Virus record (IMG/VR): IMGVR_UViG_3300014874_000001
Location: 1-64,000 of that record
Source: a virus
DNA: 64,000 nucleotides
Reading direction: 5' to 3' (one strand)
Below the pieces are notes generated by a model. That model was not told where the DNA came from. It made no database searches and saw only the letters and a program-made list of their open reading frames with translations. How positions within the stretch are numbered: position 1 is the first letter of the stretch; the number at the start of each line of letters is the position of its first letter. Below, in pieces: positions 1,835 to 49,406 of this stretch. The translations under genes and the position numbers were made by a program.

Positions 1835-2371
1835 ATGCCCCTAGTTATACTGGAAGGAGCCGATGGCTCCGGGAAGAGTACTCTTGCCACTCGACTCCTA
1901 AAGGGTACCGGACACCCTACCATACTCATAAAGAGATCGGGACCGCCCGGCAACGTCGAGACGCTGGTCTTCCAATCGGAGTGGATCGCACAGCAGTCCC
2001 GGCTCGGTCTAAACGTCATCGCCGATCGCCATCCGATTATATCCGAAGCGATCTATGCTCCGGTAGTTCGGAAGGTACCTGGACCGCACTGGGGTCCTGA
2101 GGACGCCTACAAGGCTCTCAAGCATCAGAGAGTTATGCTCGTCTACTGCCGGACCGACGACGTAACCCAGAGGGGGTCGTCCCACGTCGAGGACCAGATG
2201 GAGGGGGTACACGAGTACTACCAGGACCTCGTCAAGGAGTACGACCGCTGGATGGACTATATCCAGGATAAGGGAGTTCTCTTCTACCAATACAACTATT
2301 GGAACGATCCCAAGGCAGAGAACGTCACGGGGGTCATTCGTAACTTCTGGGAGGGAAAATGGACCGTCTAG
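1835..2371 (+). CDS. dNMP (thymidylate-type) kinase
   Basis: ATG 1835 with GGAGA at 1824-1828. MPLVILEGADGSGKSTLATRLL is a Tmk-type P-loop. The TTG 1820 extension was not used. Confidence 0.75.
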   Translation: MPLVILEGADGSGKSTLATRLLKGTGHPTILIKRSGPPGNVETLVFQSEWIAQQSRLGLNVIADRHPIISEAIYAPVVRKVPGPHWGPEDAYKALKHQRVMLVYCRTDDVTQRGSSHVEDQMEGVHEYYQDLVKEYDRWMDYIQDKGVLFYQYNYWNDPKAENVTGVIRNFWEGKWTV

Positions 2372-2955
2372 AGTCAATCTTCGAACACAAACTCATGTCC
2401 TCGGCAAACTTCCGCGCCGTCCAGCGGAAGCACGGCCTCATCCTCTGTCCTGAGAATCTATCCGCCGACTGGAAGACTCGCGAAGGAGCCATGGAACTGC
2501 ACAAGGGAATCCACTGGATCGGCCTGGAACTAGCCGAGTTTCTCAGCGCTCTACCATCCGAGCAGGAAGAGGAGCTAGCCGACGTGCTTCACTTTCTCGT
2601 AGAGTTCTGTATCCTCTGCGGATACGATCACACGGTGATCGACGGCTACGAGGACCGGCTCGATATCGTCTTCAACTCTTCAATCAACGACCCTCTGGTC
2701 TTCGCCGACTGCGATACGAACGCCCGGTTCACGATCGTCTCCGCGCTCTACGTCGCCGACATGATCAAGAACAAACCCTGGAAGCAGACGCTCAAGACCG
2801 AACGTGACGAGGACGACTTCAAGGCGCGGGTCCGCGGCCTCTGGTACTGGTACGGAGCGACTTGTCGGACCTTCGGCATGACCCCGCAGAGCCTCTTCGA
2901 CCAGTTCGTCCGGAAAGAAGAAATCAACTACAACCGAGTAGCGACTGGAGTATGA
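2359..2955 (+). CDS. All-alpha NTP pyrophosphohydrolase (dimeric dUTPase/dCTPase / MazG-like)
   Basis: Acidic helix EEELADVLHFLVEF and a KPWK motif, about 200 aa. GGGAGGG lies upstream of ATG 2359. Confidence 0.6.
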   Translation: MDRLESIFEHKLMSSANFRAVQRKHGLILCPENLSADWKTREGAMELHKGIHWIGLELAEFLSALPSEQEEELADVLHFLVEFCILCGYDHTVIDGYEDRLDIVFNSSINDPLVFADCDTNARFTIVSALYVADMIKNKPWKQTLKTERDEDDFKARVRGLWYWYGATCRTFGMTPQSLFDQFVRKEEINYNRVATGV

Positions 2956-3128
2956 CTCCTGAGAGAAGGGCCAAGCGGAAGGCCGCCGTGGAGAGGTCCG
3001 CCGAAGACAAGCGCATGCTGGACGAAATCGAAGACCTCCTGGAAGAGCGACATTATATCGTCAAGCCAAACGACACGAGATATCTCGAACAGATCATCGC
3101 GATCTTGAACTGGAAACCGACCGAGTAG
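2952..3128 (+). CDS. Hypothetical small protein (58 aa)
   Basis: ATG 2952 overlaps the upstream stop (ATGA), with GGAG 3 nt upstream. In frame with track ORF 2862..3128. Confidence 0.55.
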   Translation: MTPERRAKRKAAVERSAEDKRMLDEIEDLLEERHYIVKPNDTRYLEQIIAILNWKPTE

Positions 3129-3144
3129 TACCGGAGTATGAGTA

Positions 3145-3942
3145 ATGCTGACCCGCCTGATCCGCCACCTAATCCGACTCGAACCCGCATACCGAGGGGG
3201 ACTCTACAAGTTATTCAACGGTCTGACGTGGGAAGAGAAAAGGCTCCCGTCGTTGACCTACGACGACATCGGTTACAAAAACAACAAGGACGGACAGCTC
3301 CGAAAGAACTACATCAACGAGGAGGAGCTGGACCGCGTAGACAGCATCCTGAAGAAGCGTTCTGGAGGGCGTGGACATCACAATACCTCAGTTGCATTGG
3401 CCTTCCGAGGCGAGAAGAAGGCAAGCAAGTCCCAGGGGTGGTGCTTACTTTCGCTCGTCGTAAGCCGGATGAAGAGCCCGGCCCGCGAGATCGTTGAGAT
3501 TCACTACCGCTCGACCGAGGCACTCTTCAAGTTCCACGCCGACCTCGTACTTATGCAGTGGGTCTTCAACCGGCTCTCGCTCGATCCGGACGCCGTGAAG
3601 TTCCGGTTCGCGAATATCCATCTCTCCGGCGTATACCTCCCCGTCCTCTTTCAGTACTGGGACCAGGAGGACTTCATTGACTTCGTCGACAAGAACGACC
3701 GCGACTTTCTCAAGCGAGGACTCCGCTGGTTCCTGCGATCCTGCTATACGAAGGACCAATGGTTTCCCTTCTCGCCCGAGAACGTCATGCATAAGCTTAA
3801 CTGGGAACGGGGCGATCCCAGGACGGCCGTGAAAATACTTGACCCGTTGTTCCGGAAATACGGCTATGATTTGCCGAAGTTACACCACCAAAAAGACTCG
3901 TACGTAACCAGACGCAAGAAAAGCGTCGAGGAGGAAGAATGA
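3145..3942 (+). CDS. Highly divergent thymidylate-synthase-fold protein, function unknown
   Basis: ELDRVDSILKKRSGGRGHHNTSVALAF...QGWCLLSLVV...VEIHYRSTEALFKFHADLVLMQW mirrors the TS core layout (DQ..SRR..W / PCH..QF / RS.D / (N/D)). Cys is retained, with Asp at +33 after a 2-residue insertion. Confidence 0.5.
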   Translation: MLTRLIRHLIRLEPAYRGGLYKLFNGLTWEEKRLPSLTYDDIGYKNNKDGQLRKNYINEEELDRVDSILKKRSGGRGHHNTSVALAFRGEKKASKSQGWCLLSLVVSRMKSPAREIVEIHYRSTEALFKFHADLVLMQWVFNRLSLDPDAVKFRFANIHLSGVYLPVLFQYWDQEDFIDFVDKNDRDFLKRGLRWFLRSCYTKDQWFPFSPENVMHKLNWERGDPRTAVKILDPLFRKYGYDLPKLHHQKDSYVTRRKKSVEEEE

Positions 3943-4298
3943 AGCTCTGCCTAATAGGTTCTACCAAGTTCATGGAACTCTACGTCAAGGCGAACCGCGA
4001 TCTCACTCTTCGAGGACACATCGTCTATACCGTAGCAACCATCTCTACCAAGTCCGCGCTCGCCGATACGGAATCCACGCCGATCACTACCGAGCAGAAG
4101 GATGTCTTGGATCTAGTTCACCTCCGGAAGATCCAGGAGTCGGACGCCTGTGTTCTCGTGACGGACGACACCGGCTACTTCGGCTACTCGACTAACCGTG
4201 AGCTCATCTGGGCACAGATGAACAAGAAACCGATCTACACGATCCACAACATGGACCTCGCTGGGGAGATTGTCGACCCGAAGGAGCTGGCACTATGA
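3939..4298 (+). CDS. Nucleoside 2-deoxyribosyltransferase-like / DUF4406-like protein
   Basis: 119 aa. MKLCLIGS...HLRKIQESDACVLVTDDTGYFGYSTNRELIWAQMNKKPIY fits the NDT/Rcl-like pattern (..sD.vv....G..g.s.G...E...A...gKpi.). ATGA overlap with the upstream gene. Confidence 0.5.
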   Translation: MKLCLIGSTKFMELYVKANRDLTLRGHIVYTVATISTKSALADTESTPITTEQKDVLDLVHLRKIQESDACVLVTDDTGYFGYSTNRELIWAQMNKKPIYTIHNMDLAGEIVDPKELAL

Positions 4299-5278
4299 GA
4301 CCTCTTTGCATATACCACGGGAACTGCGCGGACGGATTCGGAGCGGCTTGGGTTGTCTGGAGATACTACGGTGGTCTAGTAGATCTCTTCCCTGGAGTCT
4401 ATCAGAAGGACCCGCCCGACGTATCGGACCGCCACGTGATCATGGTTGATTTCAGCTACAAGCGCGAGGTCATGCTGGAGATGGCCGAGATGGCAAGAAC
4501 GGTTTTGGTTTTAGACCACCACAAAACAGCTAGAGAAGATCTAAAGCCGGATGGGGGATTGGGAATCCTCGCTGTGGAGCGCGAACGTACCGGACAGCAG
4601 TGGCAGCGCTTCTGCGATAAGGATTGGGACCCCGATCAACGAGGGGTCTTTGTTCTATTCGACATGGATCGATCGGGTGCAGGTATCGCCTGGGACTTCT
4701 TCAACCCCGACGAGAAGCGGCCGACGCTCCTAAATCACATCGAGGATCGAGACCTCTGGAGGTTTAAGCTCAAAGGAACTCGAGAAATCCAGGCCACTCT
4801 CTTCTCGTATCCATACGACATGGAACTCTGGGATCGTCTTATCAATGACGTGAACATGTTCGGGACCGAGGAGATGGTCACCGAAGGTACGGCGATCGAG
4901 CGGAAACATCACAAGGACCTCGATGAGCTTCTCCGTATCTGCACTCGGCCGATGCGATTCAAGATTCCCAACATCATGAACACTCTCGTCGTTCCGGCCG
5001 CGAACCTGCCTTATACGATGGTCTCGGACGCGGGGAACATGCTCTGTCGCCGAACGCTCGACGGACAGCCGACCGATCCAGCGGCCGGTCTGAGTCCCGT
5101 GAAGCATCCGTTCGCCGCCTGCTACTACGACGGCAAGGACGGTAGGAACTTCAGCTTACGGTCCGAGGATGAGGGCGCGGACGTGTCGGCGATCGCGAAA
5201 CTGTATGGCGGAGGCGGACATGCCCACGCGGCCGGTTTCCGCGTGCCGTATGCTCAGCTCGCTCAGTTCGAGCCATGA
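4295..5278 (+). CDS. DHH/DHHA1 family phosphoesterase (NrnB/RecJ-like)
   Basis: IYHGNCADGFGAA (motif I), LVLDHHKT (DHH), DRSGAG, C-terminal GGGGHAHAAGF (DHHA1 GGGH). ATGA overlap. Confidence 0.8.
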   Translation: MRPLCIYHGNCADGFGAAWVVWRYYGGLVDLFPGVYQKDPPDVSDRHVIMVDFSYKREVMLEMAEMARTVLVLDHHKTAREDLKPDGGLGILAVERERTGQQWQRFCDKDWDPDQRGVFVLFDMDRSGAGIAWDFFNPDEKRPTLLNHIEDRDLWRFKLKGTREIQATLFSYPYDMELWDRLINDVNMFGTEEMVTEGTAIERKHHKDLDELLRICTRPMRFKIPNIMNTLVVPAANLPYTMVSDAGNMLCRRTLDGQPTDPAAGLSPVKHPFAACYYDGKDGRNFSLRSEDEGADVSAIAKLYGGGGHAHAAGFRVPYAQLAQFEP

Positions 5279-5457
5279 ATCGCGTAGACATCCTCGCACA
5301 GATTCGACGCTTTCGACTCCGCGCGGAGTCTGTGGCAAGTACAAAGATCAAGATTGAGGGAGTCGGAGTCATGACCGAGGCGGAAGCTATCGCGTGGATC
5401 GAGAGACAGTCTGAAATTCAGTGTCCTACTTGCGGACATCCTTGGGAGAAAGCATGA
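5275..5457 (+). CDS. Hypothetical small protein with CPTCGH motif
   Basis: Track ORF. ATGA overlaps at both ends. Confidence 0.5.
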   Translation: MNRVDILAQIRRFRLRAESVASTKIKIEGVGVMTEAEAIAWIERQSEIQCPTCGHPWEKA

Positions 5458-5849
5458 GGATCGCGATCACCGGCGTACCTCGCGGGGGCAAGACTTATAC
5501 GGCGAAGCTCCTCAGCGCCGTCCTCGGAATCCCCATGAACCATACGGACGACGTAATGCACCTGGAGTGGAGCGAGGGCAGCCGCGTCGTCAGCGAGTGG
5601 TTCGACCGCAACGATCCGTGGATCATCGAAGGCGTCGTCGTGCCTCGTGCGCTTCGGAAATGGAAAGCCCGACTCGAAGCCGAGAATGCCGACGAGTCAC
5701 GTCTCAGTACGCCGCCCTTCGATAAGATCATCGTCGTTCGCTACCCGCGAGACACGCTCAACTCCGGACAGAAGATCATGGGTAAGCAGGTTCTCGGTCT
5801 CATCGATACTTACAGAGACTGGATAGGAGAGAGGTGGATAGAGATATGA
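5454..5849 (+). CDS. Small P-loop kinase/NTPase (131 aa)
   Basis: ATG 5454 (GGGAGA upstream, ATGA overlap). MRIAITGVPRGGKTYTAKLL is a Walker A resembling the N-termini of phage dNMP kinases. Confidence 0.6.
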   Translation: MRIAITGVPRGGKTYTAKLLSAVLGIPMNHTDDVMHLEWSEGSRVVSEWFDRNDPWIIEGVVVPRALRKWKARLEAENADESRLSTPPFDKIIVVRYPRDTLNSGQKIMGKQVLGLIDTYRDWIGERWIEI

Positions 5850-6211
5850 TAATGCTAAACTTCCCGTTGGAGGCACTACAGACAATCGCGGCGGACAAGC
5901 TTCCACGCGTGCGAGTCGCGTTCCCTCAGGGGTCACAGATTCTGCATCTAGGCTCGGGTGGCCCGGAGTTCCCGGTGTGTCTCTCGGTCCTCGCGCCGAT
6001 CCGGCCGAAGAACGCCGATGGCACGATCAAGGAACTACAACCTCACGAGATTGCCGTGATGGAGTTTGCGGTCGTCACGCCGGGCGACGTGGTACCCGAA
6101 GGCTACATCTTCCGCGCTCCGGTTCGGACTCCCCAGGGATTGATCTTCCTGTTCGAGAAGAAGATGACGGGGCCGTCGATCCTCGTTCCACCGGGAGTAG
6201 GACGGGCATGA
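5846..6211 (+). CDS. Hypothetical protein (121 aa)
   Basis: ATG 5846 after GGAGAGAGG, with ATGA overlap to the upstream stop. Confidence 0.55.
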   Translation: MIMLNFPLEALQTIAADKLPRVRVAFPQGSQILHLGSGGPEFPVCLSVLAPIRPKNADGTIKELQPHEIAVMEFAVVTPGDVVPEGYIFRAPVRTPQGLIFLFEKKMTGPSILVPPGVGRA

Positions 6212-7038
6212 GAACCTACGGCAGCTTCGCTACGGCAATTGCGTCGGTTAGTAACCAGATGCGGGACGCTTCGTTCGAGGTCAATGGACTTAAGTGGCAG
6301 TCGATCGACGTATCGACGAAACCTGAGATGAAGATGCGAGAGTGTCTGAACGTCTCGTTCCAGGTCAACACACAGGGGATCGACGCCTGGTCGCACTACC
6401 ATAACGATATCAAGCCGAATTGGCCGTGGGCCGAAGATCATTTCCAGGAGCGAGTCGCGGGCGAGCCTCTGAACCCCGGAGAGCAATGGAAGAACTGGCC
6501 TTGGGCTCTATCGGCCGATAAGTTCCGGACCGAAGGCGAGAAGTTCAGCCATACCTACATGGAACGGTACTGGCCAAAGCTCGCGGGCGACGACGAGCAC
6601 TCGACCAAGGGATTCCTGCGAGGTATTCGATACCCTTACGGAGACCTCAATGATGTCGTCAATCATCTCCTGGGAGATCCACTTACCCGACAAGCGTATC
6701 TCCCTGTCTGGTTCCCGGAGGACACCGGCGTGGTCCATGGCGAGCGCGTTCCGTGTAGCCTGGGCTACCACTGGATTCTCCGTAACGGATATCTCCACAC
6801 CACGTATTACATCCGATCGTGCGACTTCTTCCGACACTTCCGCGACGACCTATACCTATCAATCAGGCTCTCGATCTGGCTCCTCCGACAGCTTCAAGAG
6901 ACAGAACAGGAGTCGGATCACCGTCGCTGGAACGACGTGAAACTCGGCTTCTTCACGTTTCATTGCGTCTCTCTCCATATGTTCATAAATGACTGGAACA
7001 GACTCTATGGCAAAGCGAGTCCTCAAGATTCCCGATGA
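6208..7038 (+). CDS. Thymidylate-synthase-family pyrimidine C5-transferase, dCMP-hydroxymethylase-like (Asp at specificity position)
   Basis: ATG 6208 (ATGA overlap). RQAYLPVWFPED...VPCSLGYHWILRNGYLHTTYYIRSCDFFRHFRDDLYL. Counting from the Cys: R+9, RS+20/21, D+23, FR+28/29, D+31. The track N-terminal extension 5977-6207 was rejected. Confidence 0.75.
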   Translation: MRTYGSFATAIASVSNQMRDASFEVNGLKWQSIDVSTKPEMKMRECLNVSFQVNTQGIDAWSHYHNDIKPNWPWAEDHFQERVAGEPLNPGEQWKNWPWALSADKFRTEGEKFSHTYMERYWPKLAGDDEHSTKGFLRGIRYPYGDLNDVVNHLLGDPLTRQAYLPVWFPEDTGVVHGERVPCSLGYHWILRNGYLHTTYYIRSCDFFRHFRDDLYLSIRLSIWLLRQLQETEQESDHRRWNDVKLGFFTFHCVSLHMFINDWNRLYGKASPQDSR

Positions 7039-7366
7039 CCTCACGTTCCAGCGAATCTACGACCGTGAGCGTAGCGGTCTGCGGTGCGTCGAGTACCAGT
7101 GCGAACGCTATCCGGACCTACGAATCCGGTCGCAGGGTCCGCCCGCCAACTGGTGGGACTGGACGGCCTACTACGTCGTGGATTCCGCGAACAACGTCGA
7201 GGGGTTCAGTAGTCTTCGCCGAGCTTACACGTTTCTGATGTCGAGACCGAGGAGAGTCGTACGTGACAAGAATATCCCGAGACGAGATGCTGATGGACAT
7301 CGCGTGGGTCGTAAGGCTGAGAAGTACGTGCCTCAGGCGTCAGGTCGGGGCCGTCCTTGCCGTTGA
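6989..7366 (+). CDS. Hypothetical protein; the 3' part overlaps the dCMP deaminase start
   Basis: Track ORF. Alternative start ATG 7007 (MAKRVLKIPDD...). The last ~35 codons are Arg-rich and overprint the next gene. Confidence 0.4.
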   Translation: MTGTDSMAKRVLKIPDDLTFQRIYDRERSGLRCVEYQCERYPDLRIRSQGPPANWWDWTAYYVVDSANNVEGFSSLRRAYTFLMSRPRRVVRDKNIPRRDADGHRVGRKAEKYVPQASGRGRPCR

Positions 7367-7778
7367 CGGTCGGGTCCTATCCTCAGGGTACAACGGAGCA
7401 CCCTCAGGCTTACCGCACTGTAATCCTACTACCTGTTCGGCGGATCGGCCCTGCGTCGATACCGTTCACGGAGAAGCCAATGCAATCGCTTTTGCCGCCC
7501 GCTACGGAATCCGAGTCGAAGGAGCCACCCTCTACACAACTGCCAGTCCCTGTAGGGCCTGTGCAATCCTTGCCATCAACGCCGGAATCGTCCGAGTTGT
7601 CTACGATACAGAGTACCGGGACACCAGTCCCATTGCGCTACTCAAACAAGCCGGAGTACGAATCGAACGATGGTCCCTTAATCATTCCCCTCCCGAGGTG
7701 TCGACTCTGCCAACGTCCAGTAGAATCTATCCGAGTGGAACCGGACGTGGGGAAGGGGATGCTGAAGGTAACGGCTAG
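7263..7778 (+). CDS. dCMP deaminase (ComEB/cd type)
   Basis: RISRDEMLMDIAWVVRLRSTC, VHGEANAI (HxE) and SPCRACA (PCxxC) zinc motifs. GTG start follows GAGGAG. Confidence 0.85.
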   Translation: MTRISRDEMLMDIAWVVRLRSTCLRRQVGAVLAVDGRVLSSGYNGAPSGLPHCNPTTCSADRPCVDTVHGEANAIAFAARYGIRVEGATLYTTASPCRACAILAINAGIVRVVYDTEYRDTSPIALLKQAGVRIERWSLNHSPPEVSTLPTSSRIYPSGTGRGEGDAEGNG

Positions 7779-7863
7779 TTGCCATGCTCGACAGGAGACG
7801 GTCTGGGTAGAGTTACAGGACCTCCTAAACTCAATCGCCCTCGAACCTGGAGAAGCGTTCTAG
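7633..7863 (+). CDS. Possible small zinc-ribbon protein overlapping the deaminase 3' end (start uncertain)
   Basis: C-terminal part of track ORF 7357..7863: ...PRCRLCQRPVESIRVEPDVGKGMLKVTASCHARQETVWVELQDLLNSIALEPGEAF. Third-position GC is higher than in the two competing frames by my count. Its TAG overlaps the polymerase GTG (TAGTG). The TTG 7633 start is a guess. Confidence 0.35.
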   Translation: MRYSNKPEYESNDGPLIIPLPRCRLCQRPVESIRVEPDVGKGMLKVTASCHARQETVWVELQDLLNSIALEPGEAF

Positions 7864-10412
7864 TGCCCTCGCTGAATCCCGCCTGTACGAAGTGTCCGCT
7901 ACATAAAACAACGGACGGTACCGTCTGTCTGGCAGGCGAGGGGCCGCGCAACGCGACGGTCATGGTCGTTGGGGAAGCTCCGGGCCGCGAAGAAGAGAGG
8001 ACTGGCCGCCCGTTCATGGGTGCCAGCGGACAGAAACTCAGAGCGGAGTTACGGAAAAATGGATTGGATGGGGATGTTTTTATTACTAACGTGGTACGCT
8101 GCCGTCCTCCTGATAATCGTACACCGGCCGCTGCGGAGATCAAGGCGTGCCGAGAGTACTTGGACTACGAGATCGCGCGCATTAAGCCCGAGATTGTCGT
8201 TTCGCTTGGGGCCACGCCCACGAAAGCGCTCTTCAAAGGGGTCGCAGCGGTAACGAAGCACCACGGCAAGCTAATTCCCCCGGACAAACACCCGTTCACA
8301 GGGTACGTCTCCTACCACCCAGCGGCGATGCTCTACGATCCGGGCAAGGAGGTAGACTTCCAACAAGACATCGCTCGGCTCGCGCGGATCGCCCGGGACG
8401 AACCCCCGCCCGACAATACGCTGAACTGGGCAATTCTCCGTCGAGGGAACCTCCAGAAGTTCCTCCGTGAGTTTCGCGAGGCGCCTGAGTTCTCCTTCGA
8501 CCTGGAAACCTCTGGCCTTTTCATGCACGACGGACAGGGGTGGATTAACTGCGTCGGGATCGGGCTGCAGAACCGCACATGGGTTATTCCACGAATGCGA
8601 CCGGGCTGGTATCCGTCGCGAGCGAACTCGAAAAAGCTCAAGTTCCACCGAGGCTCCCCGTGGTGTCGGGGGAAGTCCTTCGAGTTTCTCATGCGGATGA
8701 TTATCGGCATGGCGATCCGAGGGAACAAAGGCGTTATCGCTCAGAACGGCAAATTCGATAACCTGTGGCTCCAGCGCTACGTCAACCGTCGGTTTAAGAT
8801 TACGTTCGATACGATGCTCGCGAGTCATACGCTCGATGAGAATGAAGAGCATGATCTTAAGTCGATGTCCCGCAAGTATCTCGACGTGCCCGAGTATGAT
8901 CTGACGACGGCCGAGAAGCGCGGCATTGTCGATCCGATGAAGCTGTTCCAGTATAACGCTCGGGACTGCGGCTATACGCTTCGGCTAAAACACGTCTTCC
9001 AGAAGAAGCTGGAGGAAGAGGAGAGCCAGTTCCGGCTGTTCTATGAGCTCGTCATGCCAGCCGTCCGGGCAATGGAGGATATCGAGCTAGAGGGCAAGAC
9101 GATGAACGTCACGGCCCTAGAAGAACTCGGACTCGACCTTCTGTCCCGCGAGATCAAGCTTAAGCATGACCTCAAGGCCCTCGTCGGTGGAAAGGAGGTT
9201 AACTGGAATTCGCCGAAGCAGGTCGGTGCGATTCTCTATGGGGACCTCGGGATCAAGTGCGTAGCGTTTACGGCTAAGGGCGCGCCGTCTACGGGCGAGA
9301 CCGCGATCCTAGACCTCAAGGGTAAGCATCCAATCGTCGACAAACTCATCGAAGTCCGCGAAGTCTCGAAATTCAGGAGTACGTATGTTATCGGATTCCA
9401 GAAACTCATGGTCGAGGACAAGCTCTACATTTCATACAAAATCCACGGAACAGTTACAGGTCGATATGCCTCGCGTATACACTCGATCCCACGCGACGGG
9501 TCCGTTCGGAATCTGGTTATCGCGCCACCGGGCTGGAAATTTTTCCAAGCGGATATCTCTCAAGCCGAACTCCGAATCATAGCCCAGATGTCGGGCGACC
9601 TCGAAATGAGAAAGTGCTTTACCGAGGGAATAGACATCCACTGGCGGACGATGATGTTCGCGATCGCGGCCGGGTATATCTCGGGAGAGTACGCCCAGCG
9701 GGTAATCGACACAGCCGAGAAGACCACCGGAAAGAAAATGCGGATATCGGAAGCGTGCGACGAGCTACTGAAGATAGGCCACGAGGCCGCGATCAAGATT
9801 TGGCCTGGTTGGAAAGAGGCCCGGAAGAAAGCGAAGGCGATCAACTTCGGATACGTCTATGGAATGTACGAGAAGAAGTTCATACTCACCGCGAAAACCA
9901 AATACGGTTGGGAGCCAACATGGGACGAGGCACACGCTTGCAGGGAAGGCTACTTTCAACTCTACAGCGATTTACCCCGCTGGCACGACAAGCAAAAGAA
10001 ACTCGTGAAGCTGAACGGTTTCGTGAGGACCTTCTTTGGCCGTCGCAGACGGCTACCGGGGATCGAATCGAGCGAGAAGGGACTTCGCATGGAAGCCGAG
10101 AGACAGGCGATCAATTCTCCGGTTCAAGGTACGATTGGTGACTGGAAGGCGGCCGTCCTCGTCGAAATCCACGAGACCCTCGATCGCGATAAGCTCAGGC
10201 TAGTCGGAGAACACCACGACGCGCTCCTTGGCCTGATTCGCGACGGCTGCGAAGACGAGATGCTGCCGCAGGTAATCAAGATTATACGCAAGCCTCGGTT
10301 GCTTCAGAAGTTCAAGGTCCGCATGGAGATACCGATGGACGGAGAGATCGAGATAGGTCCGTGGGGCGCCGGGAAAGCATACAAGCTTCCAATTACAAAG
10401 AAAGTCGCGTAG
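7863..10412 (+). CDS. Family-4 uracil-DNA-glycosylase domain fused to 3'-5' exonuclease and family A DNA polymerase
   Basis: UDG4: CTKCPL, GEAPGREEERTGRPFMGASG, VVRCRPPDNRTPAAAEIKAC (4 Fe-S Cys), HHG, YHPAAMLY. Exo: FSFDLETSGL, AQNGKFDNLWL, YNARDCGYT. Pol: FFQADISQAELRI (A), RKKAKAINFGYVYGM (B), GEHHDAL (C). Start set at GTG 7863 because the 7779-7862 extension has low GC3. Confidence 0.9.
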   Translation: MPSLNPACTKCPLHKTTDGTVCLAGEGPRNATVMVVGEAPGREEERTGRPFMGASGQKLRAELRKNGLDGDVFITNVVRCRPPDNRTPAAAEIKACREYLDYEIARIKPEIVVSLGATPTKALFKGVAAVTKHHGKLIPPDKHPFTGYVSYHPAAMLYDPGKEVDFQQDIARLARIARDEPPPDNTLNWAILRRGNLQKFLREFREAPEFSFDLETSGLFMHDGQGWINCVGIGLQNRTWVIPRMRPGWYPSRANSKKLKFHRGSPWCRGKSFEFLMRMIIGMAIRGNKGVIAQNGKFDNLWLQRYVNRRFKITFDTMLASHTLDENEEHDLKSMSRKYLDVPEYDLTTAEKRGIVDPMKLFQYNARDCGYTLRLKHVFQKKLEEEESQFRLFYELVMPAVRAMEDIELEGKTMNVTALEELGLDLLSREIKLKHDLKALVGGKEVNWNSPKQVGAILYGDLGIKCVAFTAKGAPSTGETAILDLKGKHPIVDKLIEVREVSKFRSTYVIGFQKLMVEDKLYISYKIHGTVTGRYASRIHSIPRDGSVRNLVIAPPGWKFFQADISQAELRIIAQMSGDLEMRKCFTEGIDIHWRTMMFAIAAGYISGEYAQRVIDTAEKTTGKKMRISEACDELLKIGHEAAIKIWPGWKEARKKAKAINFGYVYGMYEKKFILTAKTKYGWEPTWDEAHACREGYFQLYSDLPRWHDKQKKLVKLNGFVRTFFGRRRRLPGIESSEKGLRMEAERQAINSPVQGTIGDWKAAVLVEIHETLDRDKLRLVGEHHDALLGLIRDGCEDEMLPQVIKIIRKPRLLQKFKVRMEIPMDGEIEIGPWGAGKAYKLPITKKVA

Positions 10413-11506: not shown

Positions 11507-12329
11507 AGACAAGAAGTCTCGCGTGGTCCGGGGGATCAAGTCGATCGGGGAGCTGGCCGAGAATATCGTTGCGCTGTTTTACGGGAAGTCCGGCCGAGGC
11601 AAGACGAAGACGGCGGCGACGTTCCCCGGGCCGATCCTTTTCATAGACATCAACAACGAGAAGGGGCTCAAGACCGTACGGAACGTCAAGAACGTCGAGG
11701 TTGCCAAGGTCAAGTCCTGGGAGGACTTCCTCGATCTCTACTGGCATCTACGAGACGGGCAGAAGTACAAGACGATCGTTCTCGATCAGATCACGGGTCT
11801 CCAGGATCTTTGTATGAAGGCGGTACGCGAGCACTTCCGCATGGATGAGGACGAACCTTTTCAGGGCTTCAAGAAGTGGGGTAAGCTCTCGGGCGATATG
11901 AAGACCTGGCTCCAGTCATATCGTGAGCTCTCCGACCTCTATCACGTCGTCTTTCTAGCCCACGAGCGAGCGTTCGACTCCTCTGAGGGTGAGGAGGGAG
12001 ACCTGGATCCGTCAGTAGGGGCTCGGGTACTCCCCTCCATCGGCGACTTCGTAGCAGGAGCCTGCGATATCATCGGACAGAGCTATATCCGGAAGATCAA
12101 GGAGAAGAGCAAGAAGACCGGAAAGCCACTCATCCATACCGAGTACTGTATGCGTATAGGCCCCCATCCGGTCTACACAACCAAGATTCGACGACCGCCT
12201 GAGTTCGGCCAGCTACCGGAATTCATCGTCGATCCCTCTTACCAGAAACTCGTGGCCATCGAGGCTGGTGAGAATTTCAACCACGTGGTAAAGAAGGAGA
12301 AGAAGCATGGCAAAGTCGAAGCCCGTTAA
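11475..12329 (+). CDS. Sak4-like RecA-fold ATPase (AAA_24)
   Basis: FYGKSGRGKTKTAATFPGPILFIDINNEKG ... YKTIVLDQITGLQDL. Confidence 0.7.
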   Translation: MPKKVLKKRLKDKKSRVVRGIKSIGELAENIVALFYGKSGRGKTKTAATFPGPILFIDINNEKGLKTVRNVKNVEVAKVKSWEDFLDLYWHLRDGQKYKTIVLDQITGLQDLCMKAVREHFRMDEDEPFQGFKKWGKLSGDMKTWLQSYRELSDLYHVVFLAHERAFDSSEGEEGDLDPSVGARVLPSIGDFVAGACDIIGQSYIRKIKEKSKKTGKPLIHTEYCMRIGPHPVYTTKIRRPPEFGQLPEFIVDPSYQKLVAIEAGENFNHVVKKEKKHGKVEAR

Positions 12330-13215
12330 GAAGGGCAAGAAGAAGAAATCAGTCACCGTATCGATGTCCGGCGTCGAGTCCGGCGGCCGTTCAATCGAAG
12401 ACGGATGGGCTCATGGCCGAATCAAGGAGGCCGAGCTGGGAACATCCTCGAACGACAACGAGATGTTCAAACTGAAGTGGGAAGTAACCCGCGGCAAGGA
12501 GAAGGCCACCGTCTTCGACCAGCTCGTGCTCACCCCGAGCGCTCTCTGGAAGACGAAGACTCTGCTCGAAGCCTGCGGCGTCGAAGTCCCCGACGACGAC
12601 ATGGACCTGAACGAGGAGATGTTCGTCGATCTGGAGTGCGATGTCGAAATCCTCAACGAGGAGTACGAGGACAAGATTCGGCCCCGGATCAACGGATTCC
12701 GTCCTGCCGGTGACGAGGAAGACGAGGACGAAGAGGAGGACGATGACGAGGAGGAGGAACGTCCCAAGTCCAAGTCGCGCGGCGACGTGAAGAAGTCCAA
12801 GAAGTCGGATGACGAGGACGATGACGAAGACGAAGAAGACGATGATGAGGAGGACGACGACTCCGACGATGACGATGATGAGGAGGACGACGACGATGAC
12901 GACGAGCCTCCACCCAAGAAAAAGAAGAAGTCCAAACCCATCGAAGACGATGAGGATGAGGATGAGGACGACGAAGACGACGAGGATGACGACGAGGACG
13001 AAGACGAAGATGACGACGAGGAGGAAGAGGCCCCCAAGAAGAAGAGCAAAAAGGCCAAGAAGAAACTCCGCGCCGGGATGAAGGTCAAGTTCAAGGACGA
13101 CAAGGGCAAGGCCAAGTCCGGTGTCATTACGTCAATCGACGACGACACGATCTACGTCGAGGACTCCAAGCAGACCGAATGGGAGCTGGAAGAAAGCGAG
13201 ATCGAGCTAGTCTAG
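12307..13215 (+). CDS. DUF669-like ssDNA-binding protein with ~105-aa Asp/Glu tract and small C-terminal beta domain
   Basis: N-terminus IEDGWAHGRIKEAELGTSSNDNEMFKLKWEVTRGKEKATVFDQLVLTPSALWKTKTLLEACG fits the DUF669 pattern and its usual position after Sak4. Acidic tract, then LRAGMKVKFKDDKGKAKSGVITSIDDDTIYVED. Confidence 0.6.
   Translation: MAKSKPVKKGKKKKSVTVSMSGVESGGRSIEDGWAHGRIKEAELGTSSNDNEMFKLKWEVTRGKEKATVFDQLVLTPSALWKTKTLLEACGVEVPDDDMDLNEEMFVDLECDVEILNEEYEDKIRPRINGFRPAGDEEDEDEEEDDDEEEERPKSKSRGDVKKSKKSDDEDDDEDEEDDDEEDDDSDDDDDEEDDDDDDEPPPKKKKKSKPIEDDEDEDEDDEDDEDDDEDEDEDDDEEEEAPKKKSKKAKKKLRAGMKVKFKDDKGKAKSGVITSIDDDTIYVEDSKQTEWELEESEIELV
12712..13030 (+). repeat. GAN-codon low-complexity tract (poly Asp/Glu with two Lys-rich interruptions)
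   Basis: Direct reading of gac/gag/gaa/gat runs. It generates the antisense poly-Ser shadow ORF 12411..13148. Confidence 0.9.
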
Positions 13216-17888: not shown

Positions 17889-17914
17889 GGACCGATTGGG
17901 GAGGAAGTGATTGG

Positions 17915-17940
17915 GGCCGGGGAAACCCGGCCTCTTTTTT
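17915..17940 (+). terminator. Rho-independent terminator between the convergent blocks
   Basis: ggccggg (17915-17921), gaaa loop, cccggcc (17926-17932), then tctttttt. Confidence 0.8.
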
Positions 17941-30345: not shown

Positions 30346-30996
30346 TTACACCGTCCTTCGGATGGTCGTACGATCGATGACCCGCTGTAGGTCTTGTGTA
30401 TTGAGAGCCGATAGCTCACCGGCATAGGCATCCTTCCATGCCTGAGTCCAGGGTCCGTCCTTCAGGAACGGTTCGGCCTGTACGAGTGAGCCGTAGAGCA
30501 AAGCCTGAGGTGCGTAGTCCGTAAGCCAGTTCGTCTGGTTCCCCGCATCGAGTAGCGGAGGCTGTTGCCAGTAGTTCCACTCATACGGATACGCGGCAAT
30601 CGGAGTTGGAACGACCAGAATGTGTTGATAGTCGTAGTCGCAATAAAACTCGGGAACGTCCCGCAGCGCCGTATTCGGCCAGTAGGTCCGGCAGTACTCA
30701 TAGGGGCGGGGGAACAGCGGGCGACGCTCCTGGTCCGGCGCCGTGCCGACTCCGAAGTTCATCGAAGCTGTCTGTCTCCAACGATCGGGTTTAGCGTAGA
30801 TGCCAGTGCCCGCAACCATCGTATCTGTGACGGGAAGTAGAAGACCAAGGATCTTCAGCTTCGTCGCGATGTCCCTCTCGGCCAGATTTATCAGGCTGGG
30901 GATTTGCGCGAAGACCGTAGCGTCACTCGCATAGCCCCGCTCCAAGTACGCCTGGAGGTCTGCGAACAGAGACGTATAGGTCATGGACACCGACAT
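30346..30996 (-). CDS. Virion structural protein (216 aa), adaptor-like by position
   Basis: AAGGAGAAGG before ATG 30996. Confidence 0.5.
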   Translation of the reverse strand: MSVSMTYTSLFADLQAYLERGYASDATVFAQIPSLINLAERDIATKLKILGLLLPVTDTMVAGTGIYAKPDRWRQTASMNFGVGTAPDQERRPLFPRPYEYCRTYWPNTALRDVPEFYCDYDYQHILVVPTPIAAYPYEWNYWQQPPLLDAGNQTNWLTDYAPQALLYGSLVQAEPFLKDGPWTQAWKDAYAGELSALNTQDLQRVIDRTTIRRTV

Positions 30997-40828: not shown

Positions 40829-41746
40829 TTAGAGACCCGGGGTGCCCCAGTTGTCGCGAGGATCGGTCCAGCCCGGAATGTAACGCTCCGTGCTCTTGTA
40901 GCGCATCGAGTCGGTCTCGAAGTCGCCTTCCATCGCCTTCTGGAGTCCACGGCGCATCATGAGTTGAACGCCGACCTGAACGTTGCTGTTCTGAATCCAC
41001 CACGCCGTTGTCGACGTAATACGACTCAAAGTCGCGACGCCCTTCGCCAACAGATTCATCGAAACGATCGGGTTGATGTCGTTGTTCGCCGCACCCGTTC
41101 GTAGAACCGACTTGACGATCACCTCCGCCTGCATCATGTTGCTGGGAGAAACGATGAACTGCGACGGCTCCAACCGAATCTTCTTGCCGTTGTTATCCAC
41201 GGCCGAGCGGATTTGGATGAGCATCTGTTCGGCCGAGGTCTGACTCAATGCCGCCGCCGTCGTCAACAGGTTCGAGAACGAACCATTGGCGATAGGGTGC
41301 GCGGAGTCGTTCATCGGCTCGCCGTCGCCGCCCGGGAAGGACGTGTTGAACGCGCGGTTGAAGATCTGCGCGACCAACGTCTCCTTCGTCTCGATCATCG
41401 ACTGGGCCAAGTGCGTCGAGTAAATCTTGCCGATGGAGATGTGATCTCCGTCCTCGACCAAGATTCGCGTCAACGCGAAAGCGAGACCGAACACGCGGTA
41501 GATGTAGCGCTGTCGGAACAGCTCTCCACCTTGACCGTACGTGACCGGGTCGCCATCGGGGACCTCGGGGGCTGCGTTGAAGCCGTACAGGACCGGTTCC
41601 TCGTGATAGGAACGCTTGATGCCCTGTCGCTCCTTAGCGACACGCTTCCACTCGTCCTTCCGTTGCTCGTAAATACCGTCGAACACCTCGTTGAGGATGG
41701 GCTCGACTACCGACCGGAAGTCGGTACTGCGCATTGGATTTGCCAT
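40829..41746 (-). CDS. Major capsid protein (HK97-fold type)
   Basis: 305 aa. Lies after the scaffold and decoration-like genes and is followed by a terminator. Composition is typical of HK97-like coat proteins. Confidence 0.75.
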   Translation of the reverse strand: MANPMRSTDFRSVVEPILNEVFDGIYEQRKDEWKRVAKERQGIKRSYHEEPVLYGFNAAPEVPDGDPVTYGQGGELFRQRYIYRVFGLAFALTRILVEDGDHISIGKIYSTHLAQSMIETKETLVAQIFNRAFNTSFPGGDGEPMNDSAHPIANGSFSNLLTTAAALSQTSAEQMLIQIRSAVDNNGKKIRLEPSQFIVSPSNMMQAEVIVKSVLRTGAANNDINPIVSMNLLAKGVATLSRITSTTAWWIQNSNVQVGVQLMMRRGLQKAMEGDFETDSMRYKSTERYIPGWTDPRDNWGTPGL

Positions 41747-47735: not shown

Positions 47736-49406
47736 CTAGCCGTCATATGGATTGACCCGCTGTTTCATTTCCTCGATCTCTTCCCTGGCCTCGCGCCCGT
47801 GACGTGTTTCATCGTCTTCCTCGATCGTCAACGGGCCGATGAATTCATCCATGAATTTGCGGACTGCCTGCGTCGTCGTATCCAGTAGGTCGTCGTGCTT
47901 GACTGAGCCCGGACCGGTGTACGTACACACCTGACTGATTAAAGGCTCGGCCCACTGCTTGAACTCCCCCTTCCGCTTCTCGCTCTCGACCGCCCAGACC
48001 CGACCGTGGGCCCAGAGTGGTGAGACGTAATGCAACCTCGATAGCTTGTCTGCTCGGCGGGGATTATAGCCTTCTGTAAAGATTTCCTCTACCTCTAGCG
48101 CCTGCCGGAGTGATATGCCACTCCCCTTCTCCTCTATGAGGATGAGGTCTATCTTCTTACCCTGAGGTCCCGGTCTCTGGGCTATAGGGACGATCTTCGG
48201 CCGAAGCTTCACTTCATGGTTGGAGGCCCCGTATCGTATCCGCCGCGCCCGTTTTACCTTCTTGATAAGTTGAGGAAGAGTCAACCAATCCTCCCAGGCA
48301 TCCAAGAGCAAGATATGATTTTCGATCTTCTTCTTTCCACTGCGAAAACGAATGGGTCGCTCGAACAAGCCCCACACCGAGCACGCGGTCGGGTCCCTAG
48401 TTTGCTTCTTCTTGTCGAACGTCTTCTCGGTAAATGCAGTATCCAGGGATAGGATAATGAACTGGAACTTCGGAAGCGGACGATCCGCAGGCCAGACCCG
48501 CCACTCGGACCGCTTGACGAAGCCCTCTTCCTCAGGGTCAAGCACCTCGCCGTGTAGCTCCTGCCGACCAACCTTCGTGCCCTCGTACTTCGCAACCGAT
48601 TGGAAAAATAGCTTCGGCAAGTTCTTCTTGTTTTCGTAGGTCGATCCAACGACGTTCACGACCTCCTTGCTCGCCACCAGCTCGCGAATGAACGGACTAG
48701 GCTTCGGCGTGCCGGTAACCAAGAGGCGTGGATGCGGGCCTAGGCGAAGACCGAACATTATGTTGTCCCACGCCTCTTGGGGATATAGCCAGCTCGCTAT
48801 CTCGTCAAGCCAGCCCGCTGCCGCCTGCGGTCCGCGTAACCGCTCGGGCGTATCGCCCGCGAACCCGCGTATTACCGATCCATTCCACAGTGTGATGGAG
48901 GGAAGTGCCAGGTTACTAGCAACGATGAGCTTCGGGGGTATGACAGAATACAACCCCGTAGGACCCTCGAAGCAGACATAACGTACGTCGTCTTTTGTGG
49001 GGGCCACCACGTAGTATTGGGAAGGAAATGCGGCTGCTTCCATCCCGAGCCAATTCGATCCGACCAGAGTTTTGCCCCAGCCTCGACCGGAGCGCGCGAC
49101 CCAGATAGTTTTTTCAAAGGCATCGAACTCCTTTGGGGGTAGCTGTTTTTCTCGGGCCATCGCTCGCCACATCATCCGCCATCGGAGGAATAGCAGCTCC
49201 TCCTCGGTGAATTGCGCGAGCGTATCTTTGTACTGTACTAGCTTCTCGGATACCTCTTCAGGCATTCCGCGCAGAAGCGGGGCATCGTAATTGAGATGAA
49301 CCCGCTGGTAGACATTCGCGAAGTTAACCGTTACTGACCGACCGTCGCTCACTTCGCTCTTTTTCCTTATTGCGTCGCGCCTCGACCTCAACGGGGTCCA
49401 GCTCAA
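47736..49406 (-). CDS. terL: Terminase large subunit (start uncertain)
   Basis: ARSGRGWGKT (Walker A), AAGWLDEIASW (Walker B), ILSLDTAF nuclease Asp. The longest start, 49406, overlaps the upstream gene by 83 nt. Confidence 0.85.
   Translation of the reverse strand: MSWTPLRSRRDAIRKKSEVSDGRSVTVNFANVYQRVHLNYDAPLLRGMPEEVSEKLVQYKDTLAQFTEEELLFLRWRMMWRAMAREKQLPPKEFDAFEKTIWVARSGRGWGKTLVGSNWLGMEAAAFPSQYYVVAPTKDDVRYVCFEGPTGLYSVIPPKLIVASNLALPSITLWNGSVIRGFAGDTPERLRGPQAAAGWLDEIASWLYPQEAWDNIMFGLRLGPHPRLLVTGTPKPSPFIRELVASKEVVNVVGSTYENKKNLPKLFFQSVAKYEGTKVGRQELHGEVLDPEEEGFVKRSEWRVWPADRPLPKFQFIILSLDTAFTEKTFDKKKQTRDPTACSVWGLFERPIRFRSGKKKIENHILLLDAWEDWLTLPQLIKKVKRARRIRYGASNHEVKLRPKIVPIAQRPGPQGKKIDLILIEEKGSGISLRQALEVEEIFTEGYNPRRADKLSRLHYVSPLWAHGRVWAVESEKRKGEFKQWAEPLISQVCTYTGPGSVKHDDLLDTTTQAVRKFMDEFIGPLTIEEDDETRHGREAREEIEEMKQRVNPYDG

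Follow-up and report, generated by a model that had tools for sequence, protein, structure and literature searches.

The window analysed here, a 64,000-bp stretch of virus DNA (positions 1 to 64,000 of IMG/VR record IMGVR_UViG_3300014874_000001), carries near its left end a block of genes, termed g1 to g12, at 1835–7778 on the plus strand. They encode a Tmk-like (d)NMP kinase (g1), an all-alpha nucleoside triphosphate pyrophosphohydrolase (NTP-PPase; g2), two proteins with the thymidylate synthase (TS) fold (protein A, g4; protein B, g10), a protein with the nucleoside 2-deoxyribosyltransferase (NDT) fold (g5), a DHH/DHHA1 phosphoesterase (g6), a small P-loop protein (g8), a zinc deaminase (g12) and the small proteins g3, g7, g9 and g11. 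The block is followed by a fusion of a uracil-DNA glycosylase (UDG) to PolA (g13), and the flavin-dependent thymidylate synthase ThyX is encoded towards the other end of the window. All of these families had been named in an earlier, sequence-only reading of the window, and all were recovered at family or fold level. The subject of this report is the pair of TS-fold proteins, their conservation as a pair in other phages, and the candidate pathway for a C5-modified deoxycytidine (dC) to which they point.

TS-fold protein B, a cytosine-type thymidylate synthase homologue of 276 aa, is encoded by g10 (6208–7038, plus strand) and matched phrog_160 (1e-24). It scored below the ThyA cut-offs of both Pfam (PF00303; 19.8 against 24.3 bits) and NCBIfam (13 against 327 bits). 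Among PDB sequences its best match was the CMP 5-hydroxymethylase MilA (4e-5), and the best ThyA was the N229D mutant of the L. casei enzyme (1njc). Residues were mapped from HMMER alignments to L. casei TS and MilA and from a MAFFT alignment with E. coli (Ec) ThyA, T4 gp42 and the Xp12 enzyme; the sequences used as references were confirmed from the PDB. C183 (VPC183S) occupies the position of the catalytic Cys (Ec C146), R203-S204-C205-D206 aligns with Ec R166-S167-C168-D169, and D214, S184 and R180 stand at Ec Asn177, His147 and Leu143, respectively. Throughout the 128 members of the g10 clade, which include proteins of Yersinia, Mycobacterium, Gordonia, Streptomyces and Clostridium phages, C183, R203, S204, D206, D214, R180 and H257 are invariant, and position 184 is always Ser or Thr. 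Exchange of Asn177 for Asp switches ThyA from dUMP to dCMP (Liu and Santi 1992; Hardy and Nalivaika 1992, both as cited in PMC8670742), and in MetaGPA no other two positions separate cytosine-modified from unmodified contigs as well as 177 and 147 do (PMC8670742).

The C terminus of g10 is short: it ends 19 residues past the equivalent of Ec H207, and the tails of ten clade members inspected measure 10–37 residues, compared with 30 in T4 dCMP hydroxymethylase and 57–63 in ThyA and the Xp12 methylase (57 in E. coli). In the ThyA C-terminal deletions of Carreras, Climie and Santi, the C terminus was reportedly required for hydride transfer. Because g10 is without the long C-terminal segment that ThyA needs for this step, its sequence leans slightly towards a hydroxymethylated rather than a methylated product. 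The missed family cut-offs, the Asp at position 177 and the short tail, in place of the long segment with which ThyA closes over the folate, set g10 apart from canonical ThyA.

TS-fold protein A (g4; 3145–3942, plus strand; 265 aa) was recognised from its predicted structure only, since its sequence matched nothing in Pfam or NCBIfam, and PDB searches with the single sequence and the family profile gave nothing usable. The AlphaFold2 model, built from the family alignment, has a pLDDT (predicted local distance difference test) of 91.4. The top Foldseek matches were T4 dCMP hydroxymethylase (6l18/6a9a/1b5d; E 7e-6, TM 0.42–0.45), then the HY126 dCMP hydroxylase (9iqu), and then ThyA; over T4 dCMP hydroxymethylase, AfhB and many ThyA the probability was 1.0 and E ranged from 7e-6 to 1e-3, at a TM of only 0.40–0.45. 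The C-terminal half of the model is all-helical and distinct. The family comprises 364 representative clusters at E<=1e-3; 142 representatives all share K48, Y56, C100, R122 and D133, and 140 of them have E125. By using hhalign, C100 of g4 was paired with C183 of g10, YRSTE with IRSCD, and D133 with D214, an alignment that is weak on its own (E 0.0036, probability 9%) and consistent with the fold match. Both proteins have Asp at Ec Asn177 and a residue other than His at 147, with the catalytic Cys and Arg retained, and the model and conserved residues of g4 suggest another TS-fold enzyme of cytosine type, competent in catalysis and with a C-terminal half of a different kind. Profile and structure tests (by Foldseek for g4 and g5) did not place the two TS-fold proteins or the NTP-PPase in unrelated families.

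Two other activities were considered for these proteins and rejected. Flavin-type 5-hydroxy-dCMP synthases carry D169N (PMC13326640); this exchange is absent here, with D206 invariant in the g10 clade and the Glu in 140 of the 142 g4 representatives at the corresponding position. A direct route from dUMP to 5-hydroxymethyl-dU, which the sequence-only reading had kept as its alternative, is made unlikely by the Asp at position 177, which is invariant in the two TS-fold proteins, and by the presence of ThyX.

The g4-like and g10-like genes were found together in every genome context examined, adjacent or one to five genes apart. The close relatives L015 and L016 retain the whole block, including the genes for the NDT-fold, DHH, 60-aa, P-loop and 121-aa proteins, and the pair is also present in the more distant contigs L003, L007, L008, L017 and L018, in Yersinia phage P744, in the Manatee Spring phage MW202455 and in phages of Serratia, Pseudomonas, Stutzerimonas and Brevundimonas. 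P744 and MW202455 both have kinase, NTP-PPase, TS-fold A, TS-fold B, deaminase and PolA in this order; both TS-fold genes stand side by side in the Serratia, Pseudomonas and Brevundimonas phages; and Clostridium phage E1 retains the core of the two TS-fold genes and PolA, the g4-like protein of C. perfringens phages having an hhalign probability of 98.5%. In L018 (5721–6194) the g4-like and g10-like genes are parted by an HNH_3 homing-endonuclease-like gene, a gene for a 160-aa protein and a DnaJ gene, so that the pair evidently tolerates separation; no fused g4–g10 protein was found among the 150 best g4-family representatives. In the window, P744, Dre3, Zuko, L007, L008, L015 and L016 the TS homologue has a deaminase gene beside it or close by; none stands beside the pair in L003 and L017. 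The ThyX gene lies within the module in MW202455 and L008; as ThyX is encoded separately, g10 is not needed for dTMP. The g5 gene lies between the two TS-fold genes in L007, L008 and L015, and most phages with the pair are without it (P744, Serratia phage Serbin, Pseudomonas phage PMBT14, MW202455 and Clostridium E1).

In the actinophages JacoRen57 (Mycobacterium; L009), Dre3 (Gordonia; L011) and Zuko (Streptomyces; L012) the gene order is thymidylate kinase, dUTPase/MazG, a hypothetical protein of 296–353 aa, TS, (deaminase) and PolA. The hypothetical protein at the TS-fold A position is weakly g4-like (hhalign probability 30–68%) and retains the Cys-containing motif. In many SEA-PHAGES actinophages the TS homologue, Asp-type and short at its C terminus, is labelled simply 'thymidylate synthase', and the protein of 296–353 aa encoded ahead of it bears no annotation; both entries may mislead. 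No report of modified DNA in actinophages with the module came up in a literature search. The g10 clade, uniformly Asp-type and C-terminally short, its constant pairing with the g4 family and its optional NDT-fold partner are undescribed in the literature searched; the pathway logic itself is already known from T4, Xp12 and MetaGPA contigs.

The remaining genes of the block are likewise on the plus strand. The kinase g1 (1835–2371; 178 aa) matched phrog_761 'thymidylate kinase' (6e-17) and its translation contains the P-loop GADGSGKST and a DRH motif; the Pfam and NCBIfam Tmk models matched its P-loop alone, far below their cut-offs. The NTP-PPase g2 (2359–2955; 198 aa) is dimeric dUTPase/MazG-like, with a marginal pass for PF08761 dUTPase_2 (8e-5; 23.4 bits against a cut-off of 22.9) and matches to phrog_12184 (5e-16) and phrog_173 (1e-6); its counterparts in relatives match PRA-PH, MazG or dUTPase_2. 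Gene g3 (2952–3128; 58 aa), which overlaps g2 by ATGA and is called as a gene on the public contig described below, gave no significant match in Pfam or PHROGs and was assigned to no family.

The NDT/dNMP N-glycosidase fold of g5 (3939–4298; 119 aa) is also known from a predicted structure only (AlphaFold2 model from the family alignment, pLDDT 83.8), as its sequence matched nothing in Pfam or NCBIfam, and the PDB returned nothing usable for the single sequence or the family profile. Foldseek matched an NDT (6evs, 7e-5), the T. brucei NDT, the CMP N-glycosidase BcmB (4jen, 1e-3) and DNPH1 (8rpt, 2e-3), the fold matches spanning a TMq of 0.53–0.61 and E from 7e-5 to 1e-2. The invariant residues of the family include G7, S8, D58, H61, S84, T85, R87 and E88, the last of these within a conserved motif; alignment of the family to DNPH1 by hhalign was not significant (E 0.19), and residue equivalence is not claimed. 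The NrnA/RecJ-like phosphoesterase g6 (4295–5278; 327 aa) matched phrog_4771 (1e-98), has LDHH and GGGGH motifs in its translation and scored below the gathering thresholds of Pfam DHH and DHHA1; it has homologues in 117 phage records from many unrelated groups and looks like a general salvage accessory.

Gene g7 (5275–5457; 60 aa), with a C-terminal CxxC, a weak zinc-ribbon match (0.016) and ATGA overlaps on both sides, keeps its position in L015 and L016. The small P-loop NTPase or kinase-like protein g8 (5454–5849; 131 aa) gave matches confined to the P-loop region: AAA_18 (5e-4, below cut-off), phrog_10255 'kinase' (0.009) and NCBIfam 'putative kinase' (0.005). Gene g9 (5846–6211; 121 aa), again joined by ATGA overlaps, could not be assigned to a family, having no match in Pfam, PHROGs, NCBIfam, the PDB or phage records, and L015 and L016 have a 121-aa gene at the same place. 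The gene that follows g10 had been placed at an open reading frame (ORF) at 7035; the public contig instead has it at 7007–7366 (g11; 119 aa). No family could be assigned to g11 from Pfam, NCBIfam or PHROGs, and it is dissimilar to the small proteins at the same place in P744, JacoRen57 and L003.

The dCMP/dCTP-type zinc deaminase g12 starts at GTG 7263 or ATG 7287 and ends at 7778; it matched PF00383 (3e-20; 72.4 bits against a cut-off of 25), phrog_174 (5e-50) and ComEB (6e-30), with the zinc motifs HGE (VHGE) and PCRAC in its translation. The gene caller used for the public contig skipped g12 and called an overlapping ORF in another frame (7480–7863; 127 aa, no family match), and the alternative frame over the g12 region has at its end a plausible peptide with a CxxC. 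The 30 C-terminal residues of g12 are without homology, and it shares its reading frame with the PolA ORF, a single TAG (7776–7778) standing between them; in relatives a deaminase of 139–144 aa abuts PolA. The ORF of g13 (7779–10412, likely start 7863, where the contig gene call begins) combines a family-4-like UDG (PF03167, 2e-32), a 3'-5' exonuclease (PF01612, 5e-14) and a family A DNA polymerase (PF00476, 3e-64). Its UDG domain (7779–8400) retains GEAPG, HPAA and N-terminal cysteines and may be catalytically active, which would weigh against dU-containing DNA. ThyX (61372–62157, plus strand; 261 aa) matched phrog_85 (2.7e-57), with PF02511 on the identical contig gene and an RHRTQS motif.

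Genes for a glycosyltransferase, a DNA methyltransferase, dihydrofolate reductase (DHFR), TET/JBP or a carbamoyltransferase were not found in Pfam scans of about 55 ORFs, which cover most of the small ORFs, together with the precomputed Pfam matches of the contig; the earlier remark that no glycosyltransferase is visible thus held. As genes of the transferase, methyltransferase and TET/JBP kinds were not found, the gene content gives no evidence for hypermodification after replication.

On account of the active-site signatures, the conserved gene order and the neighbourhood association seen in MetaGPA, we favour a reading of the block as a pre-replicative pathway for 5-hydroxymethyl- or 5-methyl-dC nucleotides with the logic of T4 and Xp12, and put its chance at about even. 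In such a pathway, g2 would hydrolyse dCTP and/or dUTP to the monophosphate, and g10, with g4 or in sequence with it, would place a one-carbon unit from methylene-tetrahydrofolate on C5 of dCMP. The Tmk-like g1 and the host nucleoside diphosphate (NDP) kinase would carry the product to the triphosphate, which the phage PolA would build into DNA, while g12 and ThyX would provide dTMP separately. The phosphoesterase g6 would supply (d)NMPs from oligonucleotides, and g5 might be a dNMP N-glycosidase that clears an unwanted by-product such as 5-hydroxymethyl-dUMP, as DNPH1 removes 5-hydroxymethyl-dUMP in human cells. Replacement of cytosine in the virion DNA may be partial.

The association with published neighbourhoods is as follows. 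A dCMP deaminase gene was reported to have a TS homologue no more than 3 kb away in 104 of 149 modified and 17 of 277 unmodified contigs; PRA-PH, DNA_pol_A and DNA_pol_A_exo1 were the other commonest neighbours, and 85% of the deaminase-linked TS homologues in modified contigs were Asp-type (bioRxiv 10.1101/2024.12.05.627091). Arithmetic from these counts gives a modified contig about nine times in ten for an Asp-type TS beside a deaminase. In the same study, five of seven deaminase-linked TS homologues tested made 5-methyl-dCMP, and the MetaGPA deaminase mSCD-B5 converted 5mdCTP to dTTP; the thymidine of Xp12 derives from 5-methyl-dC nucleotides, and 5-methylcytosine (5mC) replaces cytosine in Xp12 and PaMx74 DNA (bioRxiv 10.1101/2024.12.05.627091). 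The neighbourhoods of Xanthomonas phage Xp12, Pseudomonas phage PaMx74 and the MetaGPA contigs resemble the block in that an Asp-type TS homologue adjoins a dCMP-family deaminase, with an NTP-PPase and PolA within a few kb. The Xp12 enzyme differs in being only about 20% identical to g10 (the tblastn match covers 33% of g10) and in having a long ThyA-like C terminus and a DHFR neighbour, neither of which g10 has; tblastn found no g4-like protein in Xp12 or any Xanthomonas phage.

The analogy with T4 drawn in the sequence-only reading stands for the enzyme classes and fails in several particulars. The NTP pyrophosphatase gp56, the Asp-type TS homologue gp42, the kinase gp1, the deaminase cd and the separate TS td follow the same logic, gp42 is the top structural match of g4, and it shares Asp at Ec N177 and a short C terminus with g10. 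However, g10 is 17% identical to gp42 and has Arg where gp42 has Asp145 (Ec L143); the separate TS is ThyX, glucosyltransferases are absent here, and the block has two cytosine-type TS-fold proteins where T4 has one. T4 also differs in its kinase, in its pyrophosphatase and in its palindromes, as set out below. The Stenotrophomonas siphophage AXL3 (MT536174) likewise has a deaminase, an Asp-type TS, an NTP-PPase, a Cas4-like nuclease, PolA, ThyX, DnaJ and a primase in its replication module, and of 37 restriction enzymes tried on AXL3 DNA just 2 cut it, their sites consisting of A and T alone, the 35 resisted having G or C in their sites (PMC7504290). Its TS is Xp12-like, 26% identical to g10 over 113 residues and outside the g10 clade, and AXL3 carries a gene for a methyltransferase of S-adenosylmethionine type; AXL3 gp29, encoded upstream of the TS, was tested as a g4 homologue and rejected, as it is not g4-like.

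The MilA/MilB (mildiomycin) and BcmA/BcmB (bacimethrin) systems have a TS-fold cytosine-nucleotide hydroxymethylase beside an NDT-fold N-glycosidase, and MilA and BcmB are, respectively, the best PDB sequence match of g10 and among the top structural matches of g5. Both systems serve antibiotic synthesis in bacteria, with ribonucleotides as substrates and a free base set free, whereas the genes described here belong to a phage replication module with kinase and polymerase in which g5 is optional. The flavin-dependent 5-hydroxy-dCMP synthases of RB69 (gp48), DLP3, RL38JI and HY126 (AfhB) share the TS fold, N177D and action on dCMP before replication (PMC13326640), and the AfhB structures 9iqu and 9iqc are among the top structural matches of g4; apart from the absence of D169N already noted, neither arabinosyl- or glycosyltransferases nor genes for NDP-sugars turned up here. 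Human DNPH1, a 5-hydroxymethyl-dUMP N-hydrolase, shares the NDT fold with g5; the acidic residue in the conserved 'ST.RE' motif of g5 may correspond to its nucleophile Glu104, in an alignment that is not significant, and sanitising would suit a pathway in which a deaminase can convert 5-hydroxymethyl-dCMP to 5-hydroxymethyl-dUMP.

Several results weigh against a C5-modified dC pathway, the first of them drawn from the composition of the genome, which is the sole evidence from the DNA of the phage itself. Observed-to-expected (O/E) ratios of 6-bp palindromes were calculated against a Markov model of maximal order; the test is indirect, and its control genomes are few. Palindromes in the window are depleted (O/E 0.70, mean z -1.30), with O/E<0.5 in 25% of them compared with 1% of non-palindromic 6-mers, and not one resampling in 20,000 reached so low a value. 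Avoidance is strongest (observed/expected) for CTCGAG (3/41), AGGCCT (2/15), TTCGAA (4/29), GCCGGC (5/20), GGATCC (6/22), CCGCGG (10/31), GAGCTC (12/32) and GACGTC (11/30). The relatives L003, L007 and L008 are likewise depleted (0.59–0.77). The controls gave 0.65 for lambda, 0.94 for T4 (not significant), 0.87 for Xp12 and 0.92 for AXL3, and in Xp12, unlike the window, the CpG-containing sites CTCGAG, CCGCGG, GACGTC and GCCGGC are near expectation. The little avoidance of cytosine-containing 6-bp palindromes that goes with the modified DNA of T4, Xp12 and AXL3 is therefore not seen in the window. DNA with 5-hydroxymethylcytosine (5hmC) resists 82% of type II enzymes and DNA with 5mC 90% (PMC7653180), so a fully substituted lineage should feel little selection of this kind; the lambda-like avoidance points away from complete protective replacement of cytosine. 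As 4-bp palindromes in the window are not avoided, the pattern implies long-term exposure to type II six-cutter restriction systems.

The other opposing points concern single proteins and the literature. Position Ec L143 is proposed to distinguish methylases from hydroxymethylases. The acidic residue of characterised hydroxymethylases there (Asp or Glu, PMC13326640; Asp in both T4 and MilA), which is proposed to let water in, is absent, g10 having an invariant Arg180 and g4 Gln97; the Xp12 methylase has Asn at this position, an exception that keeps the L143 rule from settling what g10 makes. The kinase g1 resembles thymidylate kinase rather than the gp1-type dNMP kinase of T4, and g2 showed no pairwise similarity to T4 gp56 and no match among PDB sequences. 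The searchable literature gives no measured product for any protein of the g10 clade or of the g4 family, the P744 and Serbin papers report no DNA modification or restriction data, and the motifs of both clades were sought in the MetaGPA papers and supplements and not found, so that the MetaGPA contigs are not linked to this clade. The earlier claim of a C5-modified dC thus fares unevenly: its dCMP reading is strengthened by the Asp at 177, the non-His at 147 and the separate ThyX, and 5hmC or 5mC in the virion is not established, in view of the palindromes and of a thymidylate bypass through 5-methyl-dCMP for which these very genes would serve.

Palindrome avoidance of the lambda kind would suit unprotected DNA, and with the Tmk-like kinase and the adjacent deaminase it favours, or at least allows, a thymidylate bypass in a phage with canonical DNA. 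Here g2 would turn dCTP into dCMP, the Asp-type TS would make 5-methyl-dCMP, g12 would convert this to dTMP (or act at the triphosphate level) and g1 would phosphorylate it; little or no 5-methyl-dC would enter DNA, and the cytosine pool from host DNA would become thymidylate beside a slow ThyX. We regard this as unlikely, though it is the main rival to the modification pathway. It offers a role for every conserved core gene, and its chemistry has precedents in the origin of Xp12 thymidine, in mSCD-B5 and in the TS homologues that made 5-methyl-dCMP; the deaminase also lies beside or near the TS homologue in the window and the seven others named above. Set against this, the route would be redundant with ThyX in the same genome, even within the module in MW202455 and L008; g10 is without the C-terminal segment used in ThyA-type reductive methylation; no DHFR for the recycling of dihydrofolate was found in the ORFs and contig matches scanned; neither g4 nor g5 is given anything to do; L003 and L017 have no deaminase beside the pair; and Xp12 and PaMx74, the two known systems with reported DNA composition, both have 5mC in place of cytosine in their DNA. 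The constancy of the pair invites a different thought, namely that g10 makes 5-hydroxymethyl-dCMP and g4, with its Cys at C6, regenerates the exocyclic methylene and captures another nucleophile to give a new cytosine derivative; alternatively, g4 might perform a different C5 reaction or form an obligate heterodimer with g10, and the product may protect poorly against type II enzymes. The full catalytic signature and strong purifying selection in both proteins, the pair's place in the same replication cluster in all contexts (Proteobacteria and Clostridium phages, metagenomic contigs and probably actinophages), and the distinct all-helical half of g4, matched by no Pfam or NCBIfam model, speak for this. 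It rests on conservation alone, however: a second-step TS-fold enzyme is without biochemical precedent, no fusion of the two was seen among the representatives searched, and no downstream transferase genes were recognised. We judge it improbable. Put more generally, that the two proteins form a conserved two-component system, heterodimeric or sequential, which makes a derivative other than 5mC, 5hmC or 5-hydroxycytosine in phages of Proteobacteria and Clostridium and probably also in those of Actinobacteria (the Mapvirus mycobacteriophages and numerous Gordonia phages), under the labels 'thymidylate synthase' and 'hypothetical protein', is doubtful, if a little less so.

The kinship of g10 with MilA, and the presence of BcmB and DNPH1 among the structural matches of g5, raise the question of a free-base or pool-sanitising function of the MilA/MilB kind that leaves DNA unmodified: the TS homologue would hydroxymethylate (d)CMP and g5 would release 5-hydroxymethylcytosine, or the genes would degrade host nucleotides. 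The location of g5 between the TS-fold genes of several relatives fits this, as does the palindrome avoidance, which would suit canonical DNA; we nevertheless hold it to be very unlikely, because most carriers of the pair (those named above, from P744 to Clostridium E1) have no g5, the pair always accompanies a kinase and PolA in a replication module, free 5-hydroxymethylcytosine has no known use for a phage, and the identities to MilA and BcmB are low. Least credible of all to us is ordinary nucleotide metabolism, in which g10 would be a phage dUMP thymidylate synthase and g4 a degenerate paralogue. GenBank does label the homologues 'thymidylate synthase' beside 'thymidylate kinase', 'dUTPase' and 'dCMP deaminase', and the Serbin announcement reads the genes in this way. 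The Asp at Ec N177 in 128 of 128 clade members counts against it, since the mutagenesis cited in PMC8670742 switches ThyA to dCMP by this very exchange, as do the N229D mutant as best ThyA match in the PDB, the scores below the ThyA cut-offs, the short C terminus and the additional ThyX.

The window belongs to a complete circular phage assembly of about 66,945 bp, a 67,086-bp MEGAHIT k141 contig with a 141-bp terminal overlap. The public contig ena:ERZ27267751:k141_392578 (67,086 bp) is identical to the window, and the offsets of ThyX and g4 on it differ by 66,945 bp. The 2.9 kb outside the window encode five small proteins without a Pfam match and the 5' end of a primase-polymerase (Prim-Pol; PF09250, 701 aa, minus strand). 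Positions 1–1659 of the window, which had looked free of ORFs, are the 3' part of this gene, cut at the window edge. It diverges from g1, and the 175-bp intergenic region between them (1660–1834) probably contains both promoters.

The seven ATGA overlaps reported earlier, at 2952, 3939, 4295, 5275, 5454, 5846 and 6208, are real, with ATG opening the next ORF and TGA closing the previous one. The translationally coupled operon built on them is less distinctive than it seemed: among candidates genome-wide, 32 ATGA junctions between long ORFs lie on the plus strand and 17 on the minus strand, so that such coupling is not special to the gene block. The overlap is a general compaction habit of the genome, and only the succession of six junctions from 3939 to 6208 is of note. 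Moreover, the block forms the first 6 kb of a rightward unit of 16 kb. An operon end at 7778 was rejected, as the scan of the rightward unit found no convincing terminator upstream of a strong intrinsic-terminator-like hairpin at 17913–17934 (plus strand; 9-bp stem with 8 G-C pairs, then TTTTTT). This hairpin sits where the rightward replication unit and the leftward structural unit converge. Within the rightward unit, a 302-aa protein (12307–13215, plus strand; phrog_3724), the C-terminal two thirds of which are almost wholly Asp/Glu runs broken by Lys stretches, occupies the DUF669 position of relatives; the AXL3 replication module also encodes a Glu-rich protein.

The large structural ORFs at 18427–52090 (minus strand) are almost all without a Pfam match, and eight ORFs of 344–963 aa have no match at all. 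Those recognised by Pfam are the large terminase (47736–49406), an SU10-type adaptor (30346–30996) and, weakly, a Mu gpT-like capsid protein (40829–41746), all on the minus strand, the remaining matches being lectin-like domains. By sequence, the virion module is very distant from described phages. A DNA-level search of phage records with the window gave no match, and neither Rfam families nor tRNA genes turned up when the window was scanned from end to end.

The enzyme signature and the avoidance of palindromes conflict in a way that can be tested directly on existing isolates, and either outcome has consequences. If the thymidylate bypass were true, an Asp-type TS homologue beside a deaminase would be an unreliable marker of DNA modification in metagenome mining. 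If instead cytosine is modified, many cultured phages with 'thymidylate synthase' annotations, among them phages of Yersinia, Serratia, Pseudomonas, Clostridium perfringens, Gordonia, Mycobacterium and Streptomyces, would have non-canonical DNA, with consequences for sequencing, cloning, the evasion of restriction and CRISPR, and therapeutic use, and the g4 family would represent a new enzyme for nucleotide chemistry.

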